64,000 nucleotides of DNA, taken from contig CAMVDU010000001.1 of NCBI GenBank assembly GCA_947166345.1, positions 11,260 to 75,259 of the forward strand. Direction: 5' to 3'. This DNA comes from an uncultured Prevotellaceae bacterium. Its GTDB lineage: Bacteria; Bacteroidota; Bacteroidia; Bacteroidales; Bacteroidaceae. The translations under genes and the position numbers were made by a program. This document shows positions 27,498-39,162 of the stretch, piece after piece. Every line of letters begins with the position of its first letter. Within the stretch, counting starts at the first letter, position 1. A model generated the notes under the pieces. It was given only the letters and a program-made list of their open reading frames with translations, was not told the origin of the DNA and did not search any database.

Positions 27498-29228
27498 ATG
27501 AAGAGAACCGTTTTGTCCCTCACCTTGCTTGCAGCCATTTCGGTCATGCCGATGGCAGCACAGGAAGGTCCCACCATGGGCTGGAGCTCGTGGAACACTT
27601 TTGGCGTGAACATCAGCGAGAACATTATCAAACAGACAGCCGACGCTATGGTGTCGAAAGGATTACTCGACGCAGGCTATGACCATGTAAACATCGATGA
27701 CGGCTACTTTGGCGGACGCGATGCCGAGACGGGACAGCTGAAGATTCATCCCACCCGTTTCCCCAACGGCATGCAGCCTGTGGTTGACCATATCCACTCC
27801 CTGGGACTGAAGGCCGGCATCTATAGCGACGGTGGCCACAATACCTGCGGCAGCAAGTTCAACGGCGACACCATCGGTAGGGGCGTGGGACTCTATGGCC
27901 ACGACCAGCAGGACTGCGACCTCTTCTTTAAGGAACTGGGTTTCGACTTCATCAAGGTCGATTTCTGCGGTGGCTCCTACTATCATAACGATGATCACCT
28001 GGTGCTCAACGAGAAGGAACGCTATACCGCCATTGCGCAGGCCATCAAGAATACGGGTCGCACCGATGTGCGCATGAACATCTGCCGATGGGCCTATCCG
28101 GGCACCTGGGCTGACCAGGCCGGCTTCTCGTGGCGTACCACGGGCGACATCAACGCCAGCTGGGGTTCGGTGAAAGGCATCATTGCCGAGAACCTCTATA
28201 TGAGTGCCTACTGCAGCAAGGGTCATTACAACGATATGGATATGCTCGAGGTGGGACGTTCGCTCACTACCGAGGAAGACAAGACCCACTTCGGCATGTG
28301 GTGTATCATGAACTCACCCCTGCTCATCGGTTGTGACGTCAGCAGGATCAACGACACCGCCCTCAGCCTCCTGAAGAACAGGCACCTCATCGCGCTCAAC
28401 CAGGACACCCTCTACCAGCAGGCCTATCTCGCAGCCAAGAAAAACGACTGCTACCTCCTCGTCAAGGACCTTGACACCCTCTACGGCAAGAAGCGTGCCT
28501 TTGCCGTGTACAATCCCAACGACGTACAGAAGACTGTCGATGTCAGCTACAAGGACATCGACCTGGCAGGCACCGTGAAGCTCTTCAACGTGTTCACAGG
28601 CAGATACCTCAGCAAAGTGTATCCCGATGCCTACTCCTGTACCGTTCCTGCCCATGGCGTACGCATCTTCGTGGCTGAGGCCGAGCAACGACTGGAGCGC
28701 ACCCGCTACGAGGCTGAGACTGGCTACAGCAAAGCCTATTCTGAGATTACGGGCAATGTCTGCCAATACGAGGAGGCATCCTACTGCTCGGGCGGCTACA
28801 AGGCCGGCTGGCTCGGTGGCAGTAGCGACAACCACCTCGAGTGGCGCAACGTCCATAGTCAGGATGGTGGCAACTACAAGCTCACCATTGCCTACATCTG
28901 CGGAGAGTCGCGCTCCATCAGTATCTATGTCAACGGCAAGAAGGCGAAGACCCTCAGCTTCAACTCAGGCGGCTGGAGCACTGTGGCAACAAAGACCCTC
29001 GACATCACCCTCAATCCAGGCGACAACACCATCCGTCTGGTGAACACCAGCAGCTGGATGCCCGACATCGACTATATCGACGTCATTCCTGTGGAGCCCA
29101 CCGCCCTTCACGACGTGAAGGCCACCACGTCCCACGACCCCCACACCTACGACCTGCAGGGCCGCGTGGTCAACGGTCATCATGCCCACGGCATCGTCGT
29201 CAGCAATCATCGCAAAGTCATCAAGTAA
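27498..29228 (+). CDS. GH27 alpha-galactosidase family with CBM35-like module and T9SS-type tail
   Basis: PTMGWSSWN, NIDDGY, FIKVDFC, WRTTGDI, YNDMDML, YEAE; YDLQGR tail. Confidence 0.9.
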   Translation: MKRTVLSLTLLAAISVMPMAAQEGPTMGWSSWNTFGVNISENIIKQTADAMVSKGLLDAGYDHVNIDDGYFGGRDAETGQLKIHPTRFPNGMQPVVDHIHSLGLKAGIYSDGGHNTCGSKFNGDTIGRGVGLYGHDQQDCDLFFKELGFDFIKVDFCGGSYYHNDDHLVLNEKERYTAIAQAIKNTGRTDVRMNICRWAYPGTWADQAGFSWRTTGDINASWGSVKGIIAENLYMSAYCSKGHYNDMDMLEVGRSLTTEEDKTHFGMWCIMNSPLLIGCDVSRINDTALSLLKNRHLIALNQDTLYQQAYLAAKKNDCYLLVKDLDTLYGKKRAFAVYNPNDVQKTVDVSYKDIDLAGTVKLFNVFTGRYLSKVYPDAYSCTVPAHGVRIFVAEAEQRLERTRYEAETGYSKAYSEITGNVCQYEEASYCSGGYKAGWLGGSSDNHLEWRNVHSQDGGNYKLTIAYICGESRSISIYVNGKKAKTLSFNSGGWSTVATKTLDITLNPGDNTIRLVNTSSWMPDIDYIDVIPVEPTALHDVKATTSHDPHTYDLQGRVVNGHHAHGIVVSNHRKVIK

Positions 29229-29229
29229 G

Positions 29230-29296
29230 AATCAATGGGGACTGGAACAATGATACTACGCTTCAGCGTGGATCAGGGTTCCTGTCCCCAGTGATT
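29230..29296. repeat. REP-like inverted repeat at the island boundary
   Basis: aatcaatggggactggaac / gttcctgtccccagtgatt (19 bp, 2 mismatches). Confidence 0.75.
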
Positions 29297-29386
29297 TGGA
29301 TTCTTACGCGAGTTAATAGTGTCAGGCACCTGTACCTATGCGATCCAAAGAGAGTTGCACCACAATGCAACTCTCTTCTTTGATGA

Positions 29387-29575
29387 TTACAGATCTTCTT
29401 CCTCCTCTTCCCAAAGGTCTCGATGACGGCGCGAAGCGGGATCTTTATTTCCTTCCTCATCTACGCCACCATAACCGATACCCTTATCGCTCGATATGTC
29501 TTGTGAACCACAGACCATCATAGTCATCTTTATCTCTATCGCCTTGTAAGAAGGCTGCATATATACCTTTTTCAT
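29387..29575 (-). CDS. 62-aa peptide with MKKxYxxP N-terminus and acidic tail
   Basis: ATGA overlap with the upstream gene; MKKVYMQPSYKAIEIKMTMMVCGS...LWEEEEEDL. Confidence 0.7.
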   Translation of the reverse strand: MKKVYMQPSYKAIEIKMTMMVCGSQDISSDKGIGYGGVDEEGNKDPASRRHRDLWEEEEEDL

Positions 29576-30783
29576 TTTATGACCTCCTTTCTTCCATTTA
29601 TAATGTACAGGCCCTTTACAGGCTTCAGCACTTTGCGTCCCTGCAAGTCGTAAAAACACCCATTATCCAACTTATTCAACGTCTTGATGCCATTGACCTC
29701 TTCGTCACTGAAGTTAATGCTGATGCGTGTATTAGCAGCTTCCACCTCTGTCAGCACATCAAGTAGCACGAAGTAAGCACGGAACGCCTTCATTTTGGTA
29801 AGTCCCTTGGAATACCAAAACTTGTTACTACTCAAAAACAAAGCATATTCTTCTAACTTTGTTTGCGCATGATACGTACCATAGAAGCCACCATATACTA
29901 CCCTACGACGGCCCGTCAGGCCATTATCCACCTCTACCATAGCATCGTCCTCCAATGGTTCAATATTCACATTGTCAACAGTGAATTCCGTTATAGGTGA
30001 CGACACCTTTATAATATAAGGATGGTTAGCCTCTATCTCCGTTGCATCCTCAAATGAAATGCTTAAGCCCACCACATTATCGTCATCATCGTAGGTTGAC
30101 TCTGTATCATAGAAGTTTCCCAACTGTACATCATCACCAAACGTAGCTTTCACCTGTGCTTCCGTCATTGAGAACGGCAGGCAGATGGTACTCCACTCGT
30201 TGGCATTGATGGTGCGGATAACTTTAATATTGATATTGGTAGCAGCCTCTGGAATGGTGGTTGAAGCTTCATCAAGTATAGTTCGCGTTTCTGCTGGCAT
30301 ACCAATGTTAATAGAAAAGTTGATATTATCAAAGAAAGTTGTATGTATACCATCTTTGTTGCCAAACTGAATATTTTCTAAAGAAGCCTGAAAGCATGTT
30401 CCTACTTCATATTCCGAGGTTGCTTCAATAGGGATAGAGATTAGCAGTCCGCCTATGCCTGATATGGGAGAAGATTCCAACGACAATGCAACATAGTTGT
30501 CTAAACCCTCTGAATAGTTTGATGTAATGGTATAACTCTCATCATGACAAGTTCCTGCGGTAAACTGAGAGTTTCCTTTAGCATTCTTTACTGTTATTAC
30601 TTCGTTGGGTAATCGTAGTGAGAACTGCCAGCCACTATACTGGTCAGAAGCATCAAACTGATAATTGACAATAATTGTTCCTTGTCCTCCTTTAGGTATG
30701 ACAACACTCTCTACTGTTAGATTATCGGCATATATAGTGCCAACACCCATCAGTATCAATAAAGATAATAGTTTATTTCTCAT
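29572..30783 (-). CDS. Secreted protein: cohesin-like domain, beta-rich domain, T9SS-type C-terminal tail
   Basis: Signal peptide; WQFSLRLP and PISG.GGLLISIPI cohesin-like pattern; WSTICLPF and FRAYF; YDLQGRKV...GLYIINGRK. Confidence 0.75.
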   Translation of the reverse strand: MRNKLLSLLILMGVGTIYADNLTVESVVIPKGGQGTIIVNYQFDASDQYSGWQFSLRLPNEVITVKNAKGNSQFTAGTCHDESYTITSNYSEGLDNYVALSLESSPISGIGGLLISIPIEATSEYEVGTCFQASLENIQFGNKDGIHTTFFDNINFSINIGMPAETRTILDEASTTIPEAATNINIKVIRTINANEWSTICLPFSMTEAQVKATFGDDVQLGNFYDTESTYDDDDNVVGLSISFEDATEIEANHPYIIKVSSPITEFTVDNVNIEPLEDDAMVEVDNGLTGRRRVVYGGFYGTYHAQTKLEEYALFLSSNKFWYSKGLTKMKAFRAYFVLLDVLTEVEAANTRISINFSDEEVNGIKTLNKLDNGCFYDLQGRKVLKPVKGLYIINGRKEVIK

Positions 30784-30796
30784 TATTATTGGTGTT

Positions 30797-32662
30797 TTAG
30801 TTTAAAATCATATTGATAACAGCGATGGCATCAGTAACATTGACAATACCATCCTGATTAACGTCTGCAGCTCCCTCAATAAATACAGCAGGAGTGTTTT
30901 TTAACACATGGTTCACTATGCCGATAGCATCAGTAACGTTGATGATGCCGTCATTGTTTACGTCGCCTAACATATAGTCCTTCACAGTCAGTTCCGAAGA
31001 TGACTCAGCAGGGTTCAAAGTCTCATAGGTGTCAGTCGTCATATAAACATCTTCTATCATGATGTCGTAAGTACCCAACTCAACATCAGATGCAATGTTA
31101 AGACGTATATTCATGATTGATCCTTCAGTTCCCGTAATAGGATTACCGTCAAGAGAGAATAGTACGAAGAGATAGCTGTTTTCCTCGTCCGGGTCTTTCT
31201 TGCCCATGATTGTCATTCCCTCCGTTCGTTCGGTGGTAGAGGTAACTAACATATCATTCCTTTCAGCAACTGTAACCCCATTTGGCAAAGTTAGCTTAAA
31301 TTGAAGTCCTTCAACAGTTTCAGTATTCTTGAGATAAATGGGAAGATTTGCCTGTGAATTGAATCTTGCAGGAATATCTCCAGTAGATATAGGACTGCTT
31401 TCTACTATTTGAGAGAAATTGTTCCAAGGCTTCAATGCTTCATAGCGCTCTTTGGTTCCAGCTGGGACATAAAGAACAGCATCATTGGGTATGCCTTCGA
31501 AACTGTCCTCCGCAATATCTATTACAGCAGGATTACGCCATTCTACAAAAACAGATTTTAAAAAATCACAATTAGCAAAAGCTGCACTTCCTATTCTTGT
31601 TATAAAACCAGGAAGACATAAGGTTTCTATCTTTGTGCCATCAAAAACGGAATTTCTTATACTATTCAGTGAATATGTATTGTCTTTGTCTGATACATTA
31701 GATGGTATCACCAATGAAATTACCTCTGATTTTGAAGATATTAGGCCATCCACCAATGACACTAAAGAAACATTCATATTTTCGACATCAGAGATTTCAA
31801 ATTCCATCTGTTCTACCCCATTTCCCATTAAAAATGTGAAATAGAAACGTTCTCCAATTGTTGGAGAAATAACATTGATGTTTTGGAAAGAGGACCTCCA
31901 ATTTATAGAATTCTCATATGTCTTTTTCATACCATTAACAACATACAGAGTTGCATTAGTTGCTATACCTGAAAAACAATCGGAATAAGAAAGACCTGTA
32001 ATATCCGTCATATAAGAATATACTGTTTCCAATGATTTACAATTGCGGAAAGCTGCATTTCCAAAATTAATTTTGTTTGCCATAAAAGAAACAGTGTTAA
32101 GTGATATACACCCCTCAAACGAACTGTTACCCAATGAAACTGTATTTTCAGGCAAGACAAGCGACTTTAATTTTTCACACCCTTTAAATGCTCCTGCGCC
32201 TATTGAAGAAACATTATTTAAATTCAAATTATCCAAAGCAACACATCCTTCAAATGTTGAAGTATATATACTCTTAACTTGATTAGGAAAATTAATTGTA
32301 GTAAGTGATGTGCAGCCATAAAAAGCTCTTTCTCCTATTTTACTGATTGTTGAAGGCAAATTTATTGAAGTTAAGCTTGTAGAATTCTTAAAAGCATCAT
32401 TAGCAATACTCCCTACGGCATAATAATAACCATTTCTTATCACTTTTTCTGGAATTGACACATCTCCAGAACCATGTGAAACAATAAATCCATTGTCCAG
32501 TCCTACTTTAACAACTCCTTGTGCATATGAAGTAGAACTAAAGACTACAACGTCTTGTGTTATAGTATAACAAATACCATTGTAATAAAAACGATCTCCT
32601 ACAGCCCCCTTTATAAGAGATGGGATTAGGATGAATGTTAATAATATAATATACTTTTTCAT
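30797..32662 (-). CDS. BspA-type LRR protein with cohesin-like domain and C-terminal dockerin
   Basis: I...AF.GC..L LRR_5 repeats; GLQFKLTLP..GNPITGTEGSIMNI; GDVNNDGIINVTD...ADVNQDGIVNVTD. Confidence 0.85.
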   Translation of the reverse strand: MKKYIILLTFILIPSLIKGAVGDRFYYNGICYTITQDVVVFSSTSYAQGVVKVGLDNGFIVSHGSGDVSIPEKVIRNGYYYAVGSIANDAFKNSTSLTSINLPSTISKIGERAFYGCTSLTTINFPNQVKSIYTSTFEGCVALDNLNLNNVSSIGAGAFKGCEKLKSLVLPENTVSLGNSSFEGCISLNTVSFMANKINFGNAAFRNCKSLETVYSYMTDITGLSYSDCFSGIATNATLYVVNGMKKTYENSINWRSSFQNINVISPTIGERFYFTFLMGNGVEQMEFEISDVENMNVSLVSLVDGLISSKSEVISLVIPSNVSDKDNTYSLNSIRNSVFDGTKIETLCLPGFITRIGSAAFANCDFLKSVFVEWRNPAVIDIAEDSFEGIPNDAVLYVPAGTKERYEALKPWNNFSQIVESSPISTGDIPARFNSQANLPIYLKNTETVEGLQFKLTLPNGVTVAERNDMLVTSTTERTEGMTIMGKKDPDEENSYLFVLFSLDGNPITGTEGSIMNIRLNIASDVELGTYDIMIEDVYMTTDTYETLNPAESSSELTVKDYMLGDVNNDGIINVTDAIGIVNHVLKNTPAVFIEGAADVNQDGIVNVTDAIAVINMILN

Positions 32663-32663
32663 A

Positions 32664-35600
32664 TCACTCCTTGTTTAAGTATTTCGCAATAATTATAATA
32701 ATGTCTGTAATGTCGATTTTATTATCATTATTTACATCTGCCCAATAGTCATAAAAGTCTTGTGGAGTATCCTTTATAATGTGTTTTGCAGTTTTACATG
32801 CATCTTCTTCATTTATTCTTTTATCACCATTAACATCCCCATCCTGAATACTGGTATCTGCAAAAAAAACAGATAACGTCATGTTTTCTTCTGGCTCTTC
32901 AATAAAGAGCTTGCCATTTTCCTGTTGCGAAGTGACATTCTCATCATTCAGTTTAATCTTCTTTACTATATAACCTTCATTTGGTGTGAAGTTTACATAA
33001 AAAGACTTGTAAGGCGTGAAGAACACATCATCTGTTTTATCTGTTATGTTTGTATCATAGCAACTGACAGTACCGCCGCTATTCGCCTTTATCGACATGA
33101 TACCCGCTTCTTTCAAATTGGAAAATTCATCCCATCCAGCTTGATAATATTTCGTTGCTGTTCCAATAGGACAATACAAGAAACAATCTGACGGTTTTCC
33201 AGTGAAGACTTTTTGTATGGTTATTGGTTCATCCCAATGTACTACAACTCTTTGAAGACCTGAACAACCATCAAATGCGCCCGTCTTAACAGATGTAATG
33301 GAACTTGGTAAGTCGATTTTGGCCAGCGAAAAACAACCATAAAAGGCACCTGCGTTAATTTCATTAAGTGTTGACGGGAAATTGATTGTTTCCATCTTCG
33401 AGCATTCACTAAAGGCATTCTCTCCTATGACGGTAAGATTTGATGGCAGGGTTATAGAAGCAAGTTCGCGACAGTTGTTAAAGGCATTCTCTCCTATGGT
33501 CGTAAGCGTAGAAGGCAGTGAGATGGATGTCAAGATAGAACAGCCTTGGAATGCATTATTACCAATAGCCTTAATTCCTTTTGGGATTATAACAGAGGAA
33601 AGTGACTGACAATTTAGAAATAGATAATTTCTTATAATATCAACTGTTTGGGGAATATCAACATTATTCACTTCCTCTCCATTGATGTATAGTTTGGGGG
33701 AGTACTTCATCGGACCTCCATCGTTAAACGGTAGTTTGCACCAAGTAGCAATGTCTGACACATAGACTTCCAAAATGCTATTCGTAAAAATATTGCCAAT
33801 GGAATCTACATTACCTTCAATGGTTATTTTCTGCAAAGCAGTACCAAAAGCACCATCTTCAATTTTTTCTACACCTGCTTCAAGTACAACTTCTGATAAA
33901 CAGGAATTCAAAAATGCATCTGAGCCAATAGTCACACCTTCGCCTATATTAGTTTTTACAATTTGCGTTCCCTGAAAAGCATTTCTACCTACTGAAGAGT
34001 TAGGAGTGACATCCAGATTGCTAAGTCTGTAACAATTAGCAAAAGCATACTCGCCAAAATTAATCGCCCCCGTATATGTTATGCCATCTATTCCTGTATT
34101 GGAAAAAGCATTATTGCCTATAGTAGTGCAGGAGGTTGGAAGTTGAATGTTGCCTGTCAATCGTGGGCAGTTGGCAAACTCTTCATCATGTATTGTTGTG
34201 AGTGTCAACGGCAGTTTGATATTGACAAGTTTGGGAATACTTTGGAATAGACCTGCGGGAATCTCTTCTATTTGCATCTCGGTCAAATCAAGATAATAAA
34301 GATTATCCATGCCATTGATTACTGCAATGTCATCATTATTTATGATGCCTTTTAATTTCAGCTTGTAGACATCACGATTTTGGAGGTCTTGTGCTAACAG
34401 TCTGCTATATAATGTTCCTGCAGTTCTGACATTTATCGAAATAACATCGTCAGAAGTATCAATAATCAATGCACCTGGCCATCGTTGACGATATTCTTTT
34501 CCCTTACCTGTTTGAACAAAAATAGCCGCATCTGCAAAAGGATATGATCCAGAAGGTGGAGTTATGCCATTGCAATAAACATACTTTAATGAATTTCCTG
34601 CAAAAGCCCCATCCCCAATAAACTCAACAGATGCCGGTATATCTATTTCTTTTAATTCGTTGGACGCAAAAGCTCCTTCACCAATAAACTCAACAGATGC
34701 TGGTATATTTATTTCTTTTAATTCGTTGGATGCGAAAGCTCCACTCTCTATACGTGTCAGCCCATTGGGGATATTCACTTTCTCCAATATGTTATTGCCA
34801 AAAGCACCAGTTCCAATGCTTTCAACACTTTCAGGTATAGTAAGTTCCTTCTGGCTTAACACATAATACGAATTGGAACCCATGTTTGAGTTGAAAGCAT
34901 TTTCTCCAATAGCCTTAAGCTTTGATGGTAATGATACTACATTTAAAAACTTCATGTTTGAGAACATATAGTCTGCAATTTCTGTAACATTCGGCCCAAA
35001 AGTAATTTTCGCCATCCATCCGAACGTAGTAGAGTAACCTGAAAAAAAAGAATCAGCTCCATCGCAATTAAAAGGAAGACAATTTCCGGTACCGTCAGGA
35101 CTTTCTGGAAACACAATATTTCTTCCCATGTGAATCGTACTAAGACTGCAATCGGCAAACTGTCCACGATATTTCGGTCCTCCACCGTAAAAATCTGCAT
35201 CGTAATATAATTCACTAACTTTATAACTATATGAACATTCCAATTCATTCTCACTATCATCTATTATCAGTTTCGACAATTTGCGACACCAAGTAAATGC
35301 GTCTACTCCTATTTTCTTACAGTTTTTGGGGATATTTATCTCTTCAAGGTTTAAGCATTCACTAAATGCACTTCCGCCTATGGAATCGAGGCCCTCTGGT
35401 AGTTGAATCTTTTTTAGACCCATGTGACATAATTGGAAAGCACGTGGCGGTATGTATCTTACCTGACTTGGTATGTTTACAGATTCAAGTTTTACACATG
35501 AGTTAAATGCATCGGCACCTATAGTACGGATTGTTTCGGGCAAAGTAATAGAGTGTACTAAATTGGTTTTTCTAAAAGCATTTTGAGAAACGCCAACAAC

Positions 35601-36206
35601 TGTATATTCCTCCCCTAAATACGTGATTGTACTGGGTACAACAATATTTTCCCACCATTCATAAGTAGGATTTTTCCACCAATCATCTCCTATTGGAGGA
35701 AAAGATATAGCAGCTTCTTTTTCATCAACATTATTTCCCAAAATCGCTTCTTTGCTAAACTTGTCCAATGTAAACAACAAATGCAACTCAGGATCAGTAT
35801 AATAGATTGTCGCATCTTCCTCATAACCTTCATCGCCGATGTTCTCACCATCTTCAGTGACGTCAACAATCCAACTTTTAATTTTAGCAACACCTGGGAC
35901 ATAGCTTCCTACATTAGGGTCATAGTATGATTCCCAATAAGTACATTTTACGGTTGCAACACCTACTTTTCGGCCTATAACCGTGATCTTGGCTTCAGTA
36001 GTGCCAGGAGCTAATGCCACATTGTCGTTGGTTTCCTGCCATGCAGCTATTAAATCATTTAAGTTACAGTTGTAATCAACGCCCCGAGTCAGTGACAAAG
36101 TGATAGACTCTCCAACTCTGACACTTACCTCACCAACGGCAGCTGAAGTCGGGCTCAAATAGAATCCACCCAGGCACACAATTAACATTAACAATTTCCG
36201 TTTCAT
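32664..36206 (-). CDS. Large BspA-type LRR protein with C-terminal dockerin
   Basis: Signal peptide; many LRR_5 repeats; GDVNGDKRINEED...ADVNNDNKIDITD at the C-terminus. Confidence 0.88.
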   Translation of the reverse strand: MKRKLLMLIVCLGGFYLSPTSAAVGEVSVRVGESITLSLTRGVDYNCNLNDLIAAWQETNDNVALAPGTTEAKITVIGRKVGVATVKCTYWESYYDPNVGSYVPGVAKIKSWIVDVTEDGENIGDEGYEEDATIYYTDPELHLLFTLDKFSKEAILGNNVDEKEAAISFPPIGDDWWKNPTYEWWENIVVPSTITYLGEEYTVVGVSQNAFRKTNLVHSITLPETIRTIGADAFNSCVKLESVNIPSQVRYIPPRAFQLCHMGLKKIQLPEGLDSIGGSAFSECLNLEEINIPKNCKKIGVDAFTWCRKLSKLIIDDSENELECSYSYKVSELYYDADFYGGGPKYRGQFADCSLSTIHMGRNIVFPESPDGTGNCLPFNCDGADSFFSGYSTTFGWMAKITFGPNVTEIADYMFSNMKFLNVVSLPSKLKAIGENAFNSNMGSNSYYVLSQKELTIPESVESIGTGAFGNNILEKVNIPNGLTRIESGAFASNELKEINIPASVEFIGEGAFASNELKEIDIPASVEFIGDGAFAGNSLKYVYCNGITPPSGSYPFADAAIFVQTGKGKEYRQRWPGALIIDTSDDVISINVRTAGTLYSRLLAQDLQNRDVYKLKLKGIINNDDIAVINGMDNLYYLDLTEMQIEEIPAGLFQSIPKLVNIKLPLTLTTIHDEEFANCPRLTGNIQLPTSCTTIGNNAFSNTGIDGITYTGAINFGEYAFANCYRLSNLDVTPNSSVGRNAFQGTQIVKTNIGEGVTIGSDAFLNSCLSEVVLEAGVEKIEDGAFGTALQKITIEGNVDSIGNIFTNSILEVYVSDIATWCKLPFNDGGPMKYSPKLYINGEEVNNVDIPQTVDIIRNYLFLNCQSLSSVIIPKGIKAIGNNAFQGCSILTSISLPSTLTTIGENAFNNCRELASITLPSNLTVIGENAFSECSKMETINFPSTLNEINAGAFYGCFSLAKIDLPSSITSVKTGAFDGCSGLQRVVVHWDEPITIQKVFTGKPSDCFLYCPIGTATKYYQAGWDEFSNLKEAGIMSIKANSGGTVSCYDTNITDKTDDVFFTPYKSFYVNFTPNEGYIVKKIKLNDENVTSQQENGKLFIEEPEENMTLSVFFADTSIQDGDVNGDKRINEEDACKTAKHIIKDTPQDFYDYWADVNNDNKIDITDIIIIIAKYLNKE

Positions 36207-36242
36207 ACATTATTGCTTTTGTGATTTAACATCGCAAAAAGA

Positions 36243-36437
36243 GTGTGAGCCTACTTGACATTCTCTGTCGATAGGTTCTGGAATACCTGTAGTAATAAGA
36301 ATGAAATGACAGCTCACACCTGCTGGCATATATGTGAACTGTCCCCTATATAAATAAGGTACACGTATATATACGCAACAGGAAGAACAGCCTTCAAACT
36401 TGTCCCTTACTACAGTGAATTTTCCAGATTCATCGAC
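36243..36437 (-). ncRNA. Putative structured 5' leader RNA upstream of the LRR-dockerin operon
   Basis: Four perfect long-range complementary pairs (6-9 bp), one of which crosses the other three; lies between a -7 box and the ATG. Confidence 0.6.
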
Positions 36438-36493
36438 GGAACAAAGCTTTTAGCTTTCCTCTATGTTATCGCCCTTTTCTCTGAACGACGCGA

Positions 36494-36501
36494 CAAAGAT
36501 A
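36494..36501 (-). promoter_or_regulatory. -7 box for the LRR-dockerin operon
   Basis: TATCTTTG on the minus strand, about 290 nt upstream of ATG 36206. Confidence 0.65.
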
Positions 36502-36893
36502 AGAATTAATTATGAAAGTTCCAAACTTTTTCCTTTTTTTTTTACGATAGTAAGTGTTTCTTTTCTTCGCATCCACATCTTTAGCACCAGTTTTCCGAAA
36601 AAAAGAGCTAGGATAGTGATTATTCTGAACAAAACGAAATAAAACGGGAAAAATTAGATGCTTACAGAAAAAGATTTTAATCTTCACGGTTTGATATGGT
36701 ACGTTATTCACGCGCGCGTGAGAATTTTGTGAAATTTGCTACCACGCTACCACAGGCCACCTGAAATGCCCTGTATATAGGCAAATATGGTGCGGTGGTA
36801 GATACTGAAAATGTGGTAGCAATGCCACCACTTTGACATGTTTTGCGCAAAAAATTGGGTAGAAACGAGGATTTTTCATGTCTTGTGATCCAA

Positions 36894-37150
36894 AAAGTGC
36901 GTCACTTTCTGGGAGAGAATGACGCAGTTTCTTCGAGAGAGTGACGCACTTTCTCAGGGCAAGTGACGCAGAAGGCACCCCTTTGACTAAAGTCAAACGA
37001 CCTTTTGACTTAAGTCACGAGATCTTTTGACTTAAGTCGAAAACCTTTTTGACTTAAGTCACGCGGTAGGAAAGTGCGTCTGTTTGTGTTGAGAAGTGTG
37101 TCTTGCTGTGTTGGAAAGTGCATTCGTTTGAGTTGAAGAGCACACAAACA
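36894..37150. repeat. 22-bp periodic array (~12 units) with palindromic cores
   Basis: 4x AGTGACGCAC-like, 4x TTTGACTTAAGTC-like, 3-4x AAAGTGYG-like, at 22-bp spacing. Confidence 0.85.
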
Positions 37151-37176
37151 AAAAAGGAAGCCCTCGTGGACTTCCT
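37150..37176 (-). terminator. Intrinsic terminator after the TA pair
   Basis: Minus strand: aggaagtcc-acga-gggcttcct followed by a T-run. Confidence 0.65.
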
Positions 37177-37177
37177 C

Positions 37178-37570
37178 CTATGACTTTTTCAACTGTTCAA
37201 TAAAATAACAAATGGCTTTCTTTAACGGAGATATCTCGTTCGTGATAATCCATAGGATTTGTGAAGCATCCACATCAAAATAATGATGTGCAATGATGTC
37301 TCTCAAACCCTTTACATTTTTCCATGGAATAGACGGATACGTCGGCAGGAGAACGCCATCGGTGGTTTTATCCAGATTCTTTAGACTTTCGCCGATCGCA
37401 ATGAGAAGCATGCACGTTGCATCCAATAACACCATACCAGATGATGAACATAGGAAATCATCAACAGAGTGAATGTCCTTCGTCCGTTCTTCGAGTTTCT
37501 CGATGGCTGAAAGTATGTCTTCGAGAATATCTAATGCGATGCTTTTGGTTTCAGAAGACAAAGATTCCAT
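37178..37570 (-). CDS. HepT-like (DUF86/HEPN) RNase toxin
   Basis: IGE..K, IPW..VKGLRDIIAHHY (RX4HXY). Confidence 0.88.
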   Translation of the reverse strand: MESLSSETKSIALDILEDILSAIEKLEERTKDIHSVDDFLCSSSGMVLLDATCMLLIAIGESLKNLDKTTDGVLLPTYPSIPWKNVKGLRDIIAHHYFDVDASQILWIITNEISPLKKAICYFIEQLKKS

Positions 37571-37844
37571 CCTTTAAAATGCGCTTTTTTAAACGAGGAT
37601 TCAGGTTCTGGTGGTTGCGGACGATATCAACGGACGTTCCCGTCTCTTTCTCCAGAAATTCTTTAGCATCCATCAGAAGAAACGGATTTGGAGTTTCAGT
37701 ATCAACAAATAAATCAATGTCGCTACCTGCTTTTTGTTCACCTCTTGCCGTTGAGCCAAAAAGAGACAAAGACGTTATGCCATACTTCTCTTTAAGTATG
37801 TTCATATATCTTTTCAACAGTGCGATGCTTTGGTCTTTTGTCAT
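37551..37844 (-). CDS. MNT nucleotidyltransferase antitoxin
   Basis: LFGSTARGEQKAGSDIDL (GSX10DXD); overlaps the toxin gene; -7 box at 37865-37872. Confidence 0.88.
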   Translation of the reverse strand: MTKDQSIALLKRYMNILKEKYGITSLSLFGSTARGEQKAGSDIDLFVDTETPNPFLLMDAKEFLEKETGTSVDIVRNHQNLNPRLKKRILKDGIFVF

Positions 37845-37977
37845 ATCCGTATTCTTTATCGCTGCAAAGATAAGTAATATTTATCAAAGCTCCAAACTTT
37901 CTCCTACATTTTTACGAAAGGACATGTTTTCTTCATATCCACCTTTATGTTTTTTTGAGAATCATGGACAACTGATT

Positions 37978-39162
37978 TTACTTGAAGATCTTCTGGGCAA
38001 AGAGGGTGAGGTAGATGCGCCAGTTGCGCCAGATGTGGCCGCCGTCGTTTTCGTAGTACTCGTAGGGATAGTGGTGAAGGTCAAGGTACTGGCGCAGGTC
38101 GGTGTTCATCTGCATGAGGAAGTCGTCCTTGCCGATGGCTATCCAGAAGAGCTTGGGACGGGAGTCGAAGAGGCGCTGCATCTGCCCGTCGTAGTCGTCG
38201 TCGAGCTTGGAATGGGGCGTGCTGGGCACAATCTCGCGCGGCATGCGGCAGGCGGCTGACTGCAGGCCGTAGTAGTCGAAGAGCTGGGGATAGAGGCGCG
38301 CGATGCCGAAGGTGTGGCCGCCTCCCATGGAAAGGCCTGTGACGGCACGGGCTGAGCGCTTGCGGATGGTCTTGTAGTGGCTGTCCACGAAGGTGACAAT
38401 GTCCAGGAAGCTTTCTTCCATCGAGGCCTTGGCACCACGCTGGTTGAAGGCGTTGCCATCAGGGGTGTACATGCCCTCGTGCCACCAGCCTGGGGCGGCG
38501 TTGCAGGTGGGATTGCCGTTGGGCATCACCACGATCATAGGCACGCAACGGCCTTCGGCGATGAGGTTGTCCATGATCTGCGAGGCGCGTCCCAGGTCGC
38601 CCCAGGCCGTCTCGTCGCCTCCGTGACCGTGTAGCAGGTACATGACGGGGAAACGCTTCTTGCCGTCGTAGGCAGCAGGCAGATAGACGGTCATGCGACG
38701 TTGCTGACCCAGCGTGGGACTGTCGTACCACACGCGGCTGAGGGTGCCGTGGGGCACGTCGTTCACAGCGTAGAGGTGGCCCTTGTCGCTGGCATCGTGG
38801 CTGACGATGAAGATGTTGCTGAGCGTGGAGATGTCGCGGTTGACGTAGCTGTTGGCAGGGTCGATGATGCGCTGACCGTCAACGCTGAAGCTGTAGGAGT
38901 AGAGCTCAGGACGCAGCGGGGCCGTGGTTACTGTCCACACGCCGTTGTCCTGACGGGTCATGTCGAGGCGCTGGTTGCGAATCTCCTCGAAGTCGCCGTT
39001 CACGCTGACGTTCTGTGCCGTCGGGTCGTAGAAGTTGAAGGTCACGGTGCCGTCGGCATGGACGACGGGCGACTGCACACGGGGGCGCTGTCCCAGCTGC
39101 TGCTGGGCAATGCCGGCTGCTGCGAAGAGGCAGCAAACGATAAGTACTAGTTGTCTTTTCAT
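37978..39162 (-). CDS. Secreted esterase (CE1-like) with N-terminal Ig/CBM48-like domain
   Basis: YLLHGHGGDE, GLSMGG nucleophile elbow, GGHIW; signal peptide. Confidence 0.88.
   Translation of the reverse strand: MKRQLVLIVCCLFAAAGIAQQQLGQRPRVQSPVVHADGTVTFNFYDPTAQNVSVNGDFEEIRNQRLDMTRQDNGVWTVTTAPLRPELYSYSFSVDGQRIIDPANSYVNRDISTLSNIFIVSHDASDKGHLYAVNDVPHGTLSRVWYDSPTLGQQRRMTVYLPAAYDGKKRFPVMYLLHGHGGDETAWGDLGRASQIMDNLIAEGRCVPMIVVMPNGNPTCNAAPGWWHEGMYTPDGNAFNQRGAKASMEESFLDIVTFVDSHYKTIRKRSARAVTGLSMGGGHTFGIARLYPQLFDYYGLQSAACRMPREIVPSTPHSKLDDDYDGQMQRLFDSRPKLFWIAIGKDDFLMQMNTDLRQYLDLHHYPYEYYENDGGHIWRNWRIYLTLFAQKIFK

Follow-up and report, generated by a model that had tools for sequence, protein, structure and literature searches.

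A putative three-tier cohesin-dockerin chain of leucine-rich-repeat proteins in an uncultured Prevotellaceae bacterium

We have analyzed a 64,000-nucleotide (nt) stretch of DNA (the window) from an uncultured Prevotellaceae bacterium (GenBank assembly GCA_947166345.1, contig CAMVDU010000001.1, positions 11,260 to 75,259), and in particular an operon within it that encodes three proteins we term P1, P2 and P3. It is probable that these form a chain, P1-P2-P3, joined by Ca2+-dependent cohesin-dockerin (Coh-Doc) pairs and held at the cell surface by P3. The surface location is proposed because only P3 has a tag for export and anchoring, a short type IX secretion system (T9SS) C-terminal domain (CTD). 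P1 is likely the tip unit of the chain, P2 likely the adaptor, and P3 likely the anchor and carrier. The P2 dockerin would plug into the P3 cohesin, and the P1 dockerin into the P2 cohesin. The system would thus work like an adaptor-anchor scaffoldin chain and not as a cellulosome.

The operon and its domains

The genes and domains are as follows.

32664..36206, minus strand: P1, 1180 amino acids (aa); signal peptide, BspA-type leucine-rich-repeat (LRR) blocks and C-terminal dockerin, without cohesin or T9SS tail
32673..32852, minus strand: P1 dockerin, aa 1119-1178; first repeat EE, apparently decayed, second IT
30797..32662, minus strand: P2, 621 aa; signal peptide, LRR blocks, cohesin and dockerin, without T9SS tail
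30974..31399, minus strand: P2 cohesin, aa 422-563; no linker to the dockerin
30800..30979, minus strand: P2 dockerin, aa 562-621; symmetric, VT/VT
29572..30783, minus strand: P3, 403 aa; signal peptide, cohesin, beta domain and short T9SS CTD
30295..30729, minus strand: P3 cohesin, aa 19-163
29704..30288, minus strand: P3 beta-rich domain, aa 166-360; of no described family, frequent before CTDs in Prevotella
29575..29703, minus strand: P3 short T9SS CTD, with N/GI, YDLQGR, GLYI and a basic end
29387..29575, minus strand: gene for a 62-aa MKKxYxxP-type peptide, linked to the beta domain and not to the cohesin

A preliminary description of this DNA had reported three tightly packed, co-oriented genes. 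This is borne out; all three are intact minus-strand open reading frames (ORFs) in the places it gave, separated by 1 nt (P1-P2) and 13 nt (P2-P3). It had missed a fourth gene, that of the 62-aa peptide, which overlaps the P3 stop codon by 4 nt; the operon has four genes.

P1 and P2 both match LRR_5 in Pfam, with 430 and 141 bits respectively. BspA-type LRR proteins mediate adhesion and protein binding as a family property, and the LRR arrays are likely binding units for host, feed or microbial ligands. Both proteins also match Dockerin_1 (PF00404) above its cut-off of 22.9 bits (28.6 bits for P1 and 42.8 bits for P2), so the LRR and dockerin assignments made previously stand when examined with hidden Markov models. 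Each dockerin has the two Ca-binding loop-helix repeats of type I, and the dockerin profile matches solved dockerins with a best E of 2.5e-15. The 2.28-Mb genome, 82% complete, has no other dockerin above the cut-off, and one further, partial match falls below it. Both chains stop no more than two residues after the dockerin. Positions 10/11 read as described before, EE/IT in P1 and VT/VT in P2, making the P2 dockerin symmetric and that of P1 asymmetric. Symmetric repeats, which allow dual binding, are not demanded of every dockerin (PMC12484212). Since the dockerins of most P1 relatives read VT/VT, as that of P2 does, we rejected EE/IT as a separate specificity class. The asymmetry of P1 looks like decay of its first repeat.

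The Pfam Cohesin family (PF00963) gives 18.6 bits for P2, below its cut-off of 24.1, and no match for P3. The two domains are homologous to each other (E = 1e-4). A search with a profile of 55 such domains, those of P2 and P3 included, puts solved cohesins at the head of its matches, the best at E = 5e-10; of the 55 members, 31 match Pfam Cohesin at E<=0.05. An AlphaFold2 model of P2 residues 422-621, comprising cohesin and dockerin, has a mean predicted local distance difference test score (pLDDT) of 94 and a predicted template-modeling score (pTM) of 0.79. All the Foldseek matches listed for it are cohesins, with a best E of 4e-9 and TM scores by target up to 0.82. A predicted model of P3 residues 1-145 superimposes on the type I cohesin 5nrk with Z = 15.6 and a root-mean-square deviation of 2.0 over 134 residues; in this search 20 cohesin entries (Z = 11.4-15.6) outrank other folds (10.6 and lower). 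Both predicted models have the nine-strand jelly-roll beta-sandwich of a cohesin, at 9-19% sequence identity to solved examples. Because the profile and the predicted folds alike match solved type I cohesins, we take both domains to be real cohesins. The earlier calls, made by pattern recognition, therefore hold although Pfam misses both. They are the only two cohesins detected in the 82%-complete genome.

Gene order in related genomes

We sampled 121 genomes of the genus. A Dockerin_1 match is present in 68 of them, above the cut-off in 59 and with as many as 48 per genome scored, and a cohesin match in 47; in 200 other genomes from across the order a cohesin was found in 12. Dockerins are present in 45 of the 47 cohesin genomes, and a cohesin accompanies them in every one of the 27 genomes that have at least three dockerins. 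Co-occurrence with SprA is uninformative, as SprA is found in 119 of the 121.

Loci were taken around the best dockerin matches, the listed matches of dockerin-rich genomes (150 of 469 listed) and cohesins, and are thus a non-random sample. Drawn from 47 genomes or records, they contain at least 171 different dockerins, with 128 at the C-terminus, 31 in chains ending in a CTD and 12 internal. None of the 31 is joined directly to the CTD. These chains have the form X-Doc-Coh-CTD, with a detected cohesin between dockerin and CTD in 28 and a gap the size of a cohesin (116-121 aa) in the remaining three. A linker rich in Ala, Pro and Arg lies between dockerin and cohesin in fused forms, and is possibly a cleavable clasp. 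Eleven of the 128 terminal dockerins come directly after the beta domain, which in other proteins stands ahead of a CTD; the dockerin thus appears to occupy the CTD position in these proteins. Among dockerin tails of 12-40 aa, 21 of 51 end in D/E-P-Q/E/D after a basic stretch (L004, L005, L081, L160, L181, L182, L225 and others).

A dockerin gene lies directly upstream of 45 of 51 cohesin-CTD genes (in this enriched sample, counting genes with room upstream), and 24 of those 45 encode a cohesin as well. A search with P3 alone found seven loci. Six have a cohesin, and in each of these there is a dockerin upstream or in the same chain, five recognized by Pfam and that of L003 by motif only; the seventh, L007, has the beta domain only. 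There are also minimal proteins, about 200-250 aa long, that are either Coh-CTD or Coh-Doc. The same four-gene operon occurs in loci L225 and L332, whose relatives of P1 are full-length and show 38% and 37% identity, and the same architecture in L082, L227 and L298. The order Doc, Coh-Doc, Coh-CTD is therefore kept elsewhere, as the preliminary description would require, the three-gene form being in the minority within a broader Doc/Coh-CTD arrangement.

Other arrangements were observed. Some relatives have scaffoldin-like multi-cohesin proteins, including four cohesins plus a dockerin in L107, eight cohesins in L292, and nine matches in one 2467-aa frame of G550, which has such proteins on contigs C25 and C18. 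A dockerin match without a cohesin match is seen in 23 genomes, of which five were examined. Six of their eight matches are proteins of about 1300 aa (L353-L358) in which a divergent domain of cohesin size comes after the dockerin, a weak profile match being seen in one (E = 0.088) and a CTD detected in none. The other two look like false matches in TonB-dependent receptors. By eye, each dockerin-rich genome seems to have one dominant dockerin type, such as MA in G003, VA/VG/VS in G104 and IT in G144.

The relatives of P1 extend the range of cargo. Of 18, 17 end in a dockerin without cohesin or CTD, and the remaining one is apparently shortened. Six of the 18 carry a Peptidase_C10 domain with Inhibitor_I69, the catalytic-motif pattern being matched in two of the six. 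The tip slot therefore takes proteases too, and the previous statement that LRR units replace enzymes is too narrow.

The P2 dockerin and the P3 cohesin

The similarity of dockerins tracks that of the downstream anchor cohesins over 36 operons (Mantel r = 0.60, and 0.55 given the beta domain). No such tracking is found between dockerin and beta domain given the cohesin (0.02). Over 23 operons the dockerin tracks the anchor cohesin better than the cohesin of its own chain (0.60 compared with 0.41). Given the gene order, the fused forms and this co-segregation, it is very likely that the P2 dockerin binds the P3 cohesin, in agreement with the pairing suggested previously from the sequence.

The P1 dockerin and the P2 cohesin

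P2 has cohesin and dockerin on one protein, as an adaptor does. An indication of what its cohesin binds comes from locus L332. There the P1-type dockerin and the P2-type cohesin are 50% and 56% identical to those of the window. The P2 dockerin is of AQ type, and the anchor cohesin is only 22% identical to that of the window but 55-59% to the anchors of three other AQ operons. This suggests that the dockerin/anchor pair has been swapped while the P1-dockerin/P2-cohesin pair was kept, which matches the prediction of a tiered chain. An adaptor with two different specificities is thereby suggested for L332, whose two dockerins differ strongly (similarity 0.24). Among cohesins of the P2 family the docking face stays similar, even as the dockerin on the same chain changes type (VT, IA, IG, AQ and IF). 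This face is 67% conserved compared with 51% for the opposite face (n = 30), and P2 retains the strand-3 G/Q.

A predicted complex of the P1 dockerin with P2 Coh-Doc scores 0.82, against 0.00 for the best control, with at least 98% of contacts in agreement between runs and a partner pLDDT of at least 89. The mark used for such scores is attained by 116 of 157 solved pairs and 2 of 215 mismatched pairs. The dockerin is placed on the canonical face; cohesin strands 3, 5, 6 and 8 meet dockerin helix 3, with P1 I50/T51 in contact. Because similar complexes of this textbook pair are already solved, the model indicates likeness and a free canonical face, and not binding or preference. Taking these observations together we consider it likely that the P1 dockerin binds the P2 cohesin.

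A number of points weigh against the pairings and the tiers. The Mantel tests treat related and linked genes as independent, and linkage and kinship inflate r. The cohesin profile was built partly from genomes that were later counted, so that the co-occurrence of cohesins and dockerins is not fully independent. A third, dockerin-ending gene is present in only 6 of the 19 adaptor-plus-anchor operons in which the next gene is visible. Over seven three-gene operons the correlation for the P1-to-P2 tier falls short of significance (r = 0.37, p = 0.17), that between upstream dockerin and anchor cohesin in the same seven being r = 0.16, p = 0.29, and the tier rests on the single swap event in L332. 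The dockerins of most P1 relatives are VT/VT and close to that of P2, and one relative (P0260) has a P2-type dockerin. Both dockerins of an operon are alike in L081 (similarity 0.90), L225 (0.64) and L227 (0.77). The docking faces of P2 and P3 are 33% identical, compared with 16% for the rest of the domain, which places their likeness in the top 4-5% of background by identity and 8-10% by BLOSUM; this argues for a shared specificity. The conserved face is missing in some cohesins that precede dockerins (L004, L181 and L182).

A different arrangement has one specificity class throughout. P2 would then polymerize head-to-tail on the P3 anchor and P1 would cap the polymer or bind P3, giving pilus-like LRR fibers of variable length. 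The P1-family and P2 dockerins do belong to one VT/IT class, the P2 and P3 faces are alike and that of P2 is free in the model. In L006, L137, L138 and L154 the pre-dockerin and downstream cohesins share 80-100% of face residues. Proteins that consist of Coh-Doc only exist, and ScaH of Ruminococcus flavefaciens is described as a variable-length spacer (PMC12484212). Yet the face of P2-family cohesins is kept while their own dockerins switch type, so self-binding is not generally kept, and the dissimilar dockerins of L332 do not fit such a fiber. We think this arrangement rather unlikely.

In another alternative there are two tiers only. The P2 cohesin would serve as a structural prop for the dockerin, much as the X module does in X-dockerin pairs, or as an adhesin fold, with P1 and P2 competing for P3. 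The lack of a linker between cohesin and dockerin in P2 and the compact model (pTM 0.79) could be read in this way, as could the loss of face residues in some such cohesins and the 13 of 19 operons that have no third dockerin gene. Against this, the P2 face has retained its strand-3 G/Q and is better conserved than the opposite face, L332 has a P1-type dockerin beside a P2-type cohesin despite its AQ-type anchor, and the complex model, as a matter of likeness, docks P1 on the P2 cohesin. A two-tier arrangement is improbable.

The preliminary description had placed P1 on P2 and P2 on P3. Both pairings of the three-tier chain are likely from the swap in L332, the complex model and the co-segregation; that the tiers are exclusive in this operon does not follow. 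Since both dockerins of the window belong to one class, its tiers need not be exclusive, and binding of P1 to P3 or polymers of P2 are compatible with the data.

The tail of P3 and a route for export

The YDLQGR tail of P3 had been described as of T9SS type. No CTD family in Pfam or NCBIfam matches it, so this part of the proposed profile check gave nothing. It does carry the motifs of published short Prevotella CTDs behind a signal peptide called by heuristic, and it matches 25 other ORFs of the same genome at E<=0.01, in almost every case at the C-terminal end. We therefore agree with the assignment. The resemblance is to short-CTD cargo of Prevotella intermedia, in which there is a GI at the cleavage site, a motif B of Y..G plus a basic residue, a motif D of GxY-I and a basic motif E (PMC11969387). 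Such cargo is exported through SprA, cleaved by PorU and attached to surface polysaccharide (PMC11969387). The genome encodes SprA plus two PorU-type sortases, the genes of the latter forming a tandem pair at G000:C30:13640-19586.

P1, P2 and P3 all have type I-like signal peptides and, by heuristic, no lipobox; lipoprotein anchoring was rejected on this basis. Neither P1 nor P2 has a T9SS CTD of its own, both ending at their dockerins; this raises a question of export that the preliminary description had overlooked. More generally, a signal peptide is called in 104 of 121 proteins that end in a dockerin and a lipobox in one, compared with 84 and three of 100 CTD proteins (also by heuristic). 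The T9SS transports folded proteins and requires a CTD (PMC9251779), so the simplest route is assembly in the periplasm. P3 would pass Sec and then SprA, with P1 and P2 docked on it in the periplasm and exported together with it. PorU would cut the P3 CTD and link P3 to surface polysaccharide, from established T9SS biology. Such co-export is proposed because P1 and P2 have signal peptides but neither CTD nor lipobox, and we rate its chances as about even. There is a parallel in the hitchhiking export of partner proteins by the twin-arginine translocation (Tat) system. Two points count against the scheme. The P3 tail is 39 aa long from the GI motif, 4 aa below the published range of 43-55 for short CTDs of P. 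intermedia (PMC11969387), and we found no report of CTD-less cargo riding the T9SS, most subscription papers being unsearchable.

P1 and P2 might alternatively cross the outer membrane alone, by a signal in the dockerin or a short tail, in vesicles or by lysis, and be caught outside by surface P3 or possibly by cohesins of other cells. This would be compatible with the chain. Many dockerin genes are far from cohesin genes in dockerin-rich genomes, dockerins outnumber cohesins (41 to 10 in G104), and the D/E-P-Q/E/D ending on 21 of 51 tails might be such a signal. However, such a tail is absent from P1 and P2, dockerins are built of helices whereas the CTD read by PorV is made of beta strands (PMC11969387), and tight operons suit assembly before export. 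Docking outside the cell is accordingly rather unlikely for these proteins. It is very improbable that the complex stays periplasmic, or that the dockerins are roleless relics of gene shuffling. The first repeat of P1 is decayed and the operon lies in an inserted block of low GC content, as relics might, but the frames are intact, the operon and the Ca-loop residues are conserved, P3 has its CTD and dockerins co-segregate with cohesins.

Extending the co-export scheme, the dockerin could be a second, non-covalent address label for the T9SS. CTD-less proteins would plug into a periplasmic cohesin-CTD carrier, and the preassembled chain would pass SprA, giving P3-(P2)n-P1 fibers whose LRR or protease tips are recombined between plug-socket types. 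We offer this tentatively, with the chances somewhat against it.

Relation to known systems

The scaffoldins of R. flavefaciens (ScaC, and ScaH on sortase-anchored ScaE), Acetivibrio and Clostridium have the same cohesin fold and two-loop dockerin, and in these too a single Coh-Doc adaptor like P2 stands between dockerin-bearing cargo and a cell-bound cohesin. A Ruminococcus also secretes LRR_5-dockerin proteins like P1 (PMC7480376). In contrast to these Firmicutes the host here is Gram-negative, and the anchor is a T9SS CTD rather than a sortase motif or surface-layer homology domain. Unlike a cellulosome, the operon lacks a multi-cohesin scaffoldin, carbohydrate-binding module (CBM) or cellulase, and its cargo must cross an outer membrane too, without a signal of its own. 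No multi-cohesin primary scaffoldin was found in the 82%-complete genome, which has two single-cohesin proteins, and no cellulase or other carbohydrate-active enzyme with a dockerin, both above-cut-off dockerins being on LRR proteins. Non-cellulosomal cohesins of Clostridium perfringens (NagJ) and Archaeoglobus fulgidus are among the structural matches (2jh2, 2vo8 and 2xdh) and likewise involve no cellulases. They differ in being enzyme-borne or archaeal, with no outer membrane or T9SS.

Of the published systems we found, the nearest is a cellulosome-like structure proposed for Ca. Stygibacter (Cloacimonadota; PMC8542988). This is also a diderm, with signal-peptide proteins ending in dockerins, a cohesin protein that would attach to the surface by a CTD, and non-cellulase cargo, all inferred from sequence. 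It has, however, one multi-cohesin scaffoldin of 3,755 aa with CBMs and enzymes, and the parts of that account available to us raise no question of export (PMC8542988). The present system differs in having a small single-cohesin anchor and an adaptor. Its genes are linked in operons, fused forms occur, and its dockerin types track the anchor.

Orphan dockerins have been reported in rumen Bacteroidota (PMC6487960, PMC7480376 and PMC6071333). They are type I-like and borne on Prevotella proteins, including one C10 peptidase-dockerin; in the parts of these papers available no partner or anchor is named, and in one the role 'is not defined yet'. One survey found cohesins only in Firmicutes bins (PMC9177762), and the P. 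intermedia account of short CTDs, as far as available, describes no cohesin, dockerin or CTD-less partner (PMC11969387). We found no paper that pairs Prevotella dockerins with CTD-bearing cohesins, most subscription papers being unsearchable. Reports of these rumen dockerins go back years, with no partner for them, and the cohesins described here escape standard profiles. P3-type CTD-bearing cohesins point to the partners of such unexplained dockerins in gut Bacteroidota. The operon is a minimal system for two questions, namely which cohesin each dockerin binds and whether the T9SS exports proteins without a CTD. If CTD-less export is true it would be a piggyback T9SS route, and would account for the tail-less secreted proteins of which some Prevotella have dozens in a genome. 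There would also be new plug-socket types (VT, AQ and IA) for surface display in Gram-negative gut bacteria.

The beta domain, the small peptide and the surroundings of the operon

At E<=0.001 P3 has 2433 relatives; none of the 120 matches listed has a Pfam label. Relatives of P3 come from Prevotellaceae metagenome-assembled genomes, several labeled rumen. The P3 beta domain matches no PDB sequence below E = 0.27, and the relatives of this domain share no common Pfam family. Atlas neighbors, with the relative P0131 as query, are unnamed. Fold searches with P3 are dominated by the cohesin and do not report on the fold of the beta domain. A gene for a 43-77-aa MKKxYxxP peptide, its start pattern taken partly from related loci, comes after 40 of the 47 genes whose product ends in beta domain-CTD, compared with none of 26 cohesin-CTD genes lacking the beta domain and 3 of 32 CTD genes of other kinds. 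The tails of dockerins that stand behind beta domains bear a weak likeness to the peptide core; they provide all of the top five scores against the peptide profile, none of them significant. The peptide is possibly a ligand of the beta domain, or a strand that complements it.

The operon block has 35-40% GC, whereas its flanks have 52-58% (2-kb windows). Its neighbors, by Pfam, are an alpha-galactosidase gene on one side and a nucleotidyltransferase/HepT pair on the other. The latter, a nucleotidyltransferase with a HepT-like RNase (37178-37844, minus strand), is inside the same low-GC block. Two features precede P1.

36494..36501, minus strand: Bacteroidota-type -7 promoter-like box, read from sequence
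36215..36460, minus strand: conserved long hairpin in the 5' leader (fold z = -5.7), not operon-specific

The box was called from TAnnTTTG, which we take to be the Bacteroidota -7 consensus. The 54 nt around it recur with 80% identity upstream of the neighboring nucleotidyltransferase/HepT toxin-antitoxin pair. Scans for sigma-70 promoters and terminators gave no excess over shuffled sequence. The hairpin, which the preliminary description had overlooked, is imperfect, with double (compensatory) changes in 20 of 58 pairs among 18 copies. It was matched in 21 of 120 other genomes, some of the matches being short, ahead of unrelated genes, some of them LRR genes. No Rfam family matched at E<=1 over 28000-38500, the hairpin included. 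The hairpin might function as a cis-regulatory RNA, or as a site at which cassettes recombine. Three sets of partly palindromic repeats with a 22-nt period lie at 36890-37140, between the operon and the toxin-antitoxin pair, and are a possible protein-binding array of a mobile element.

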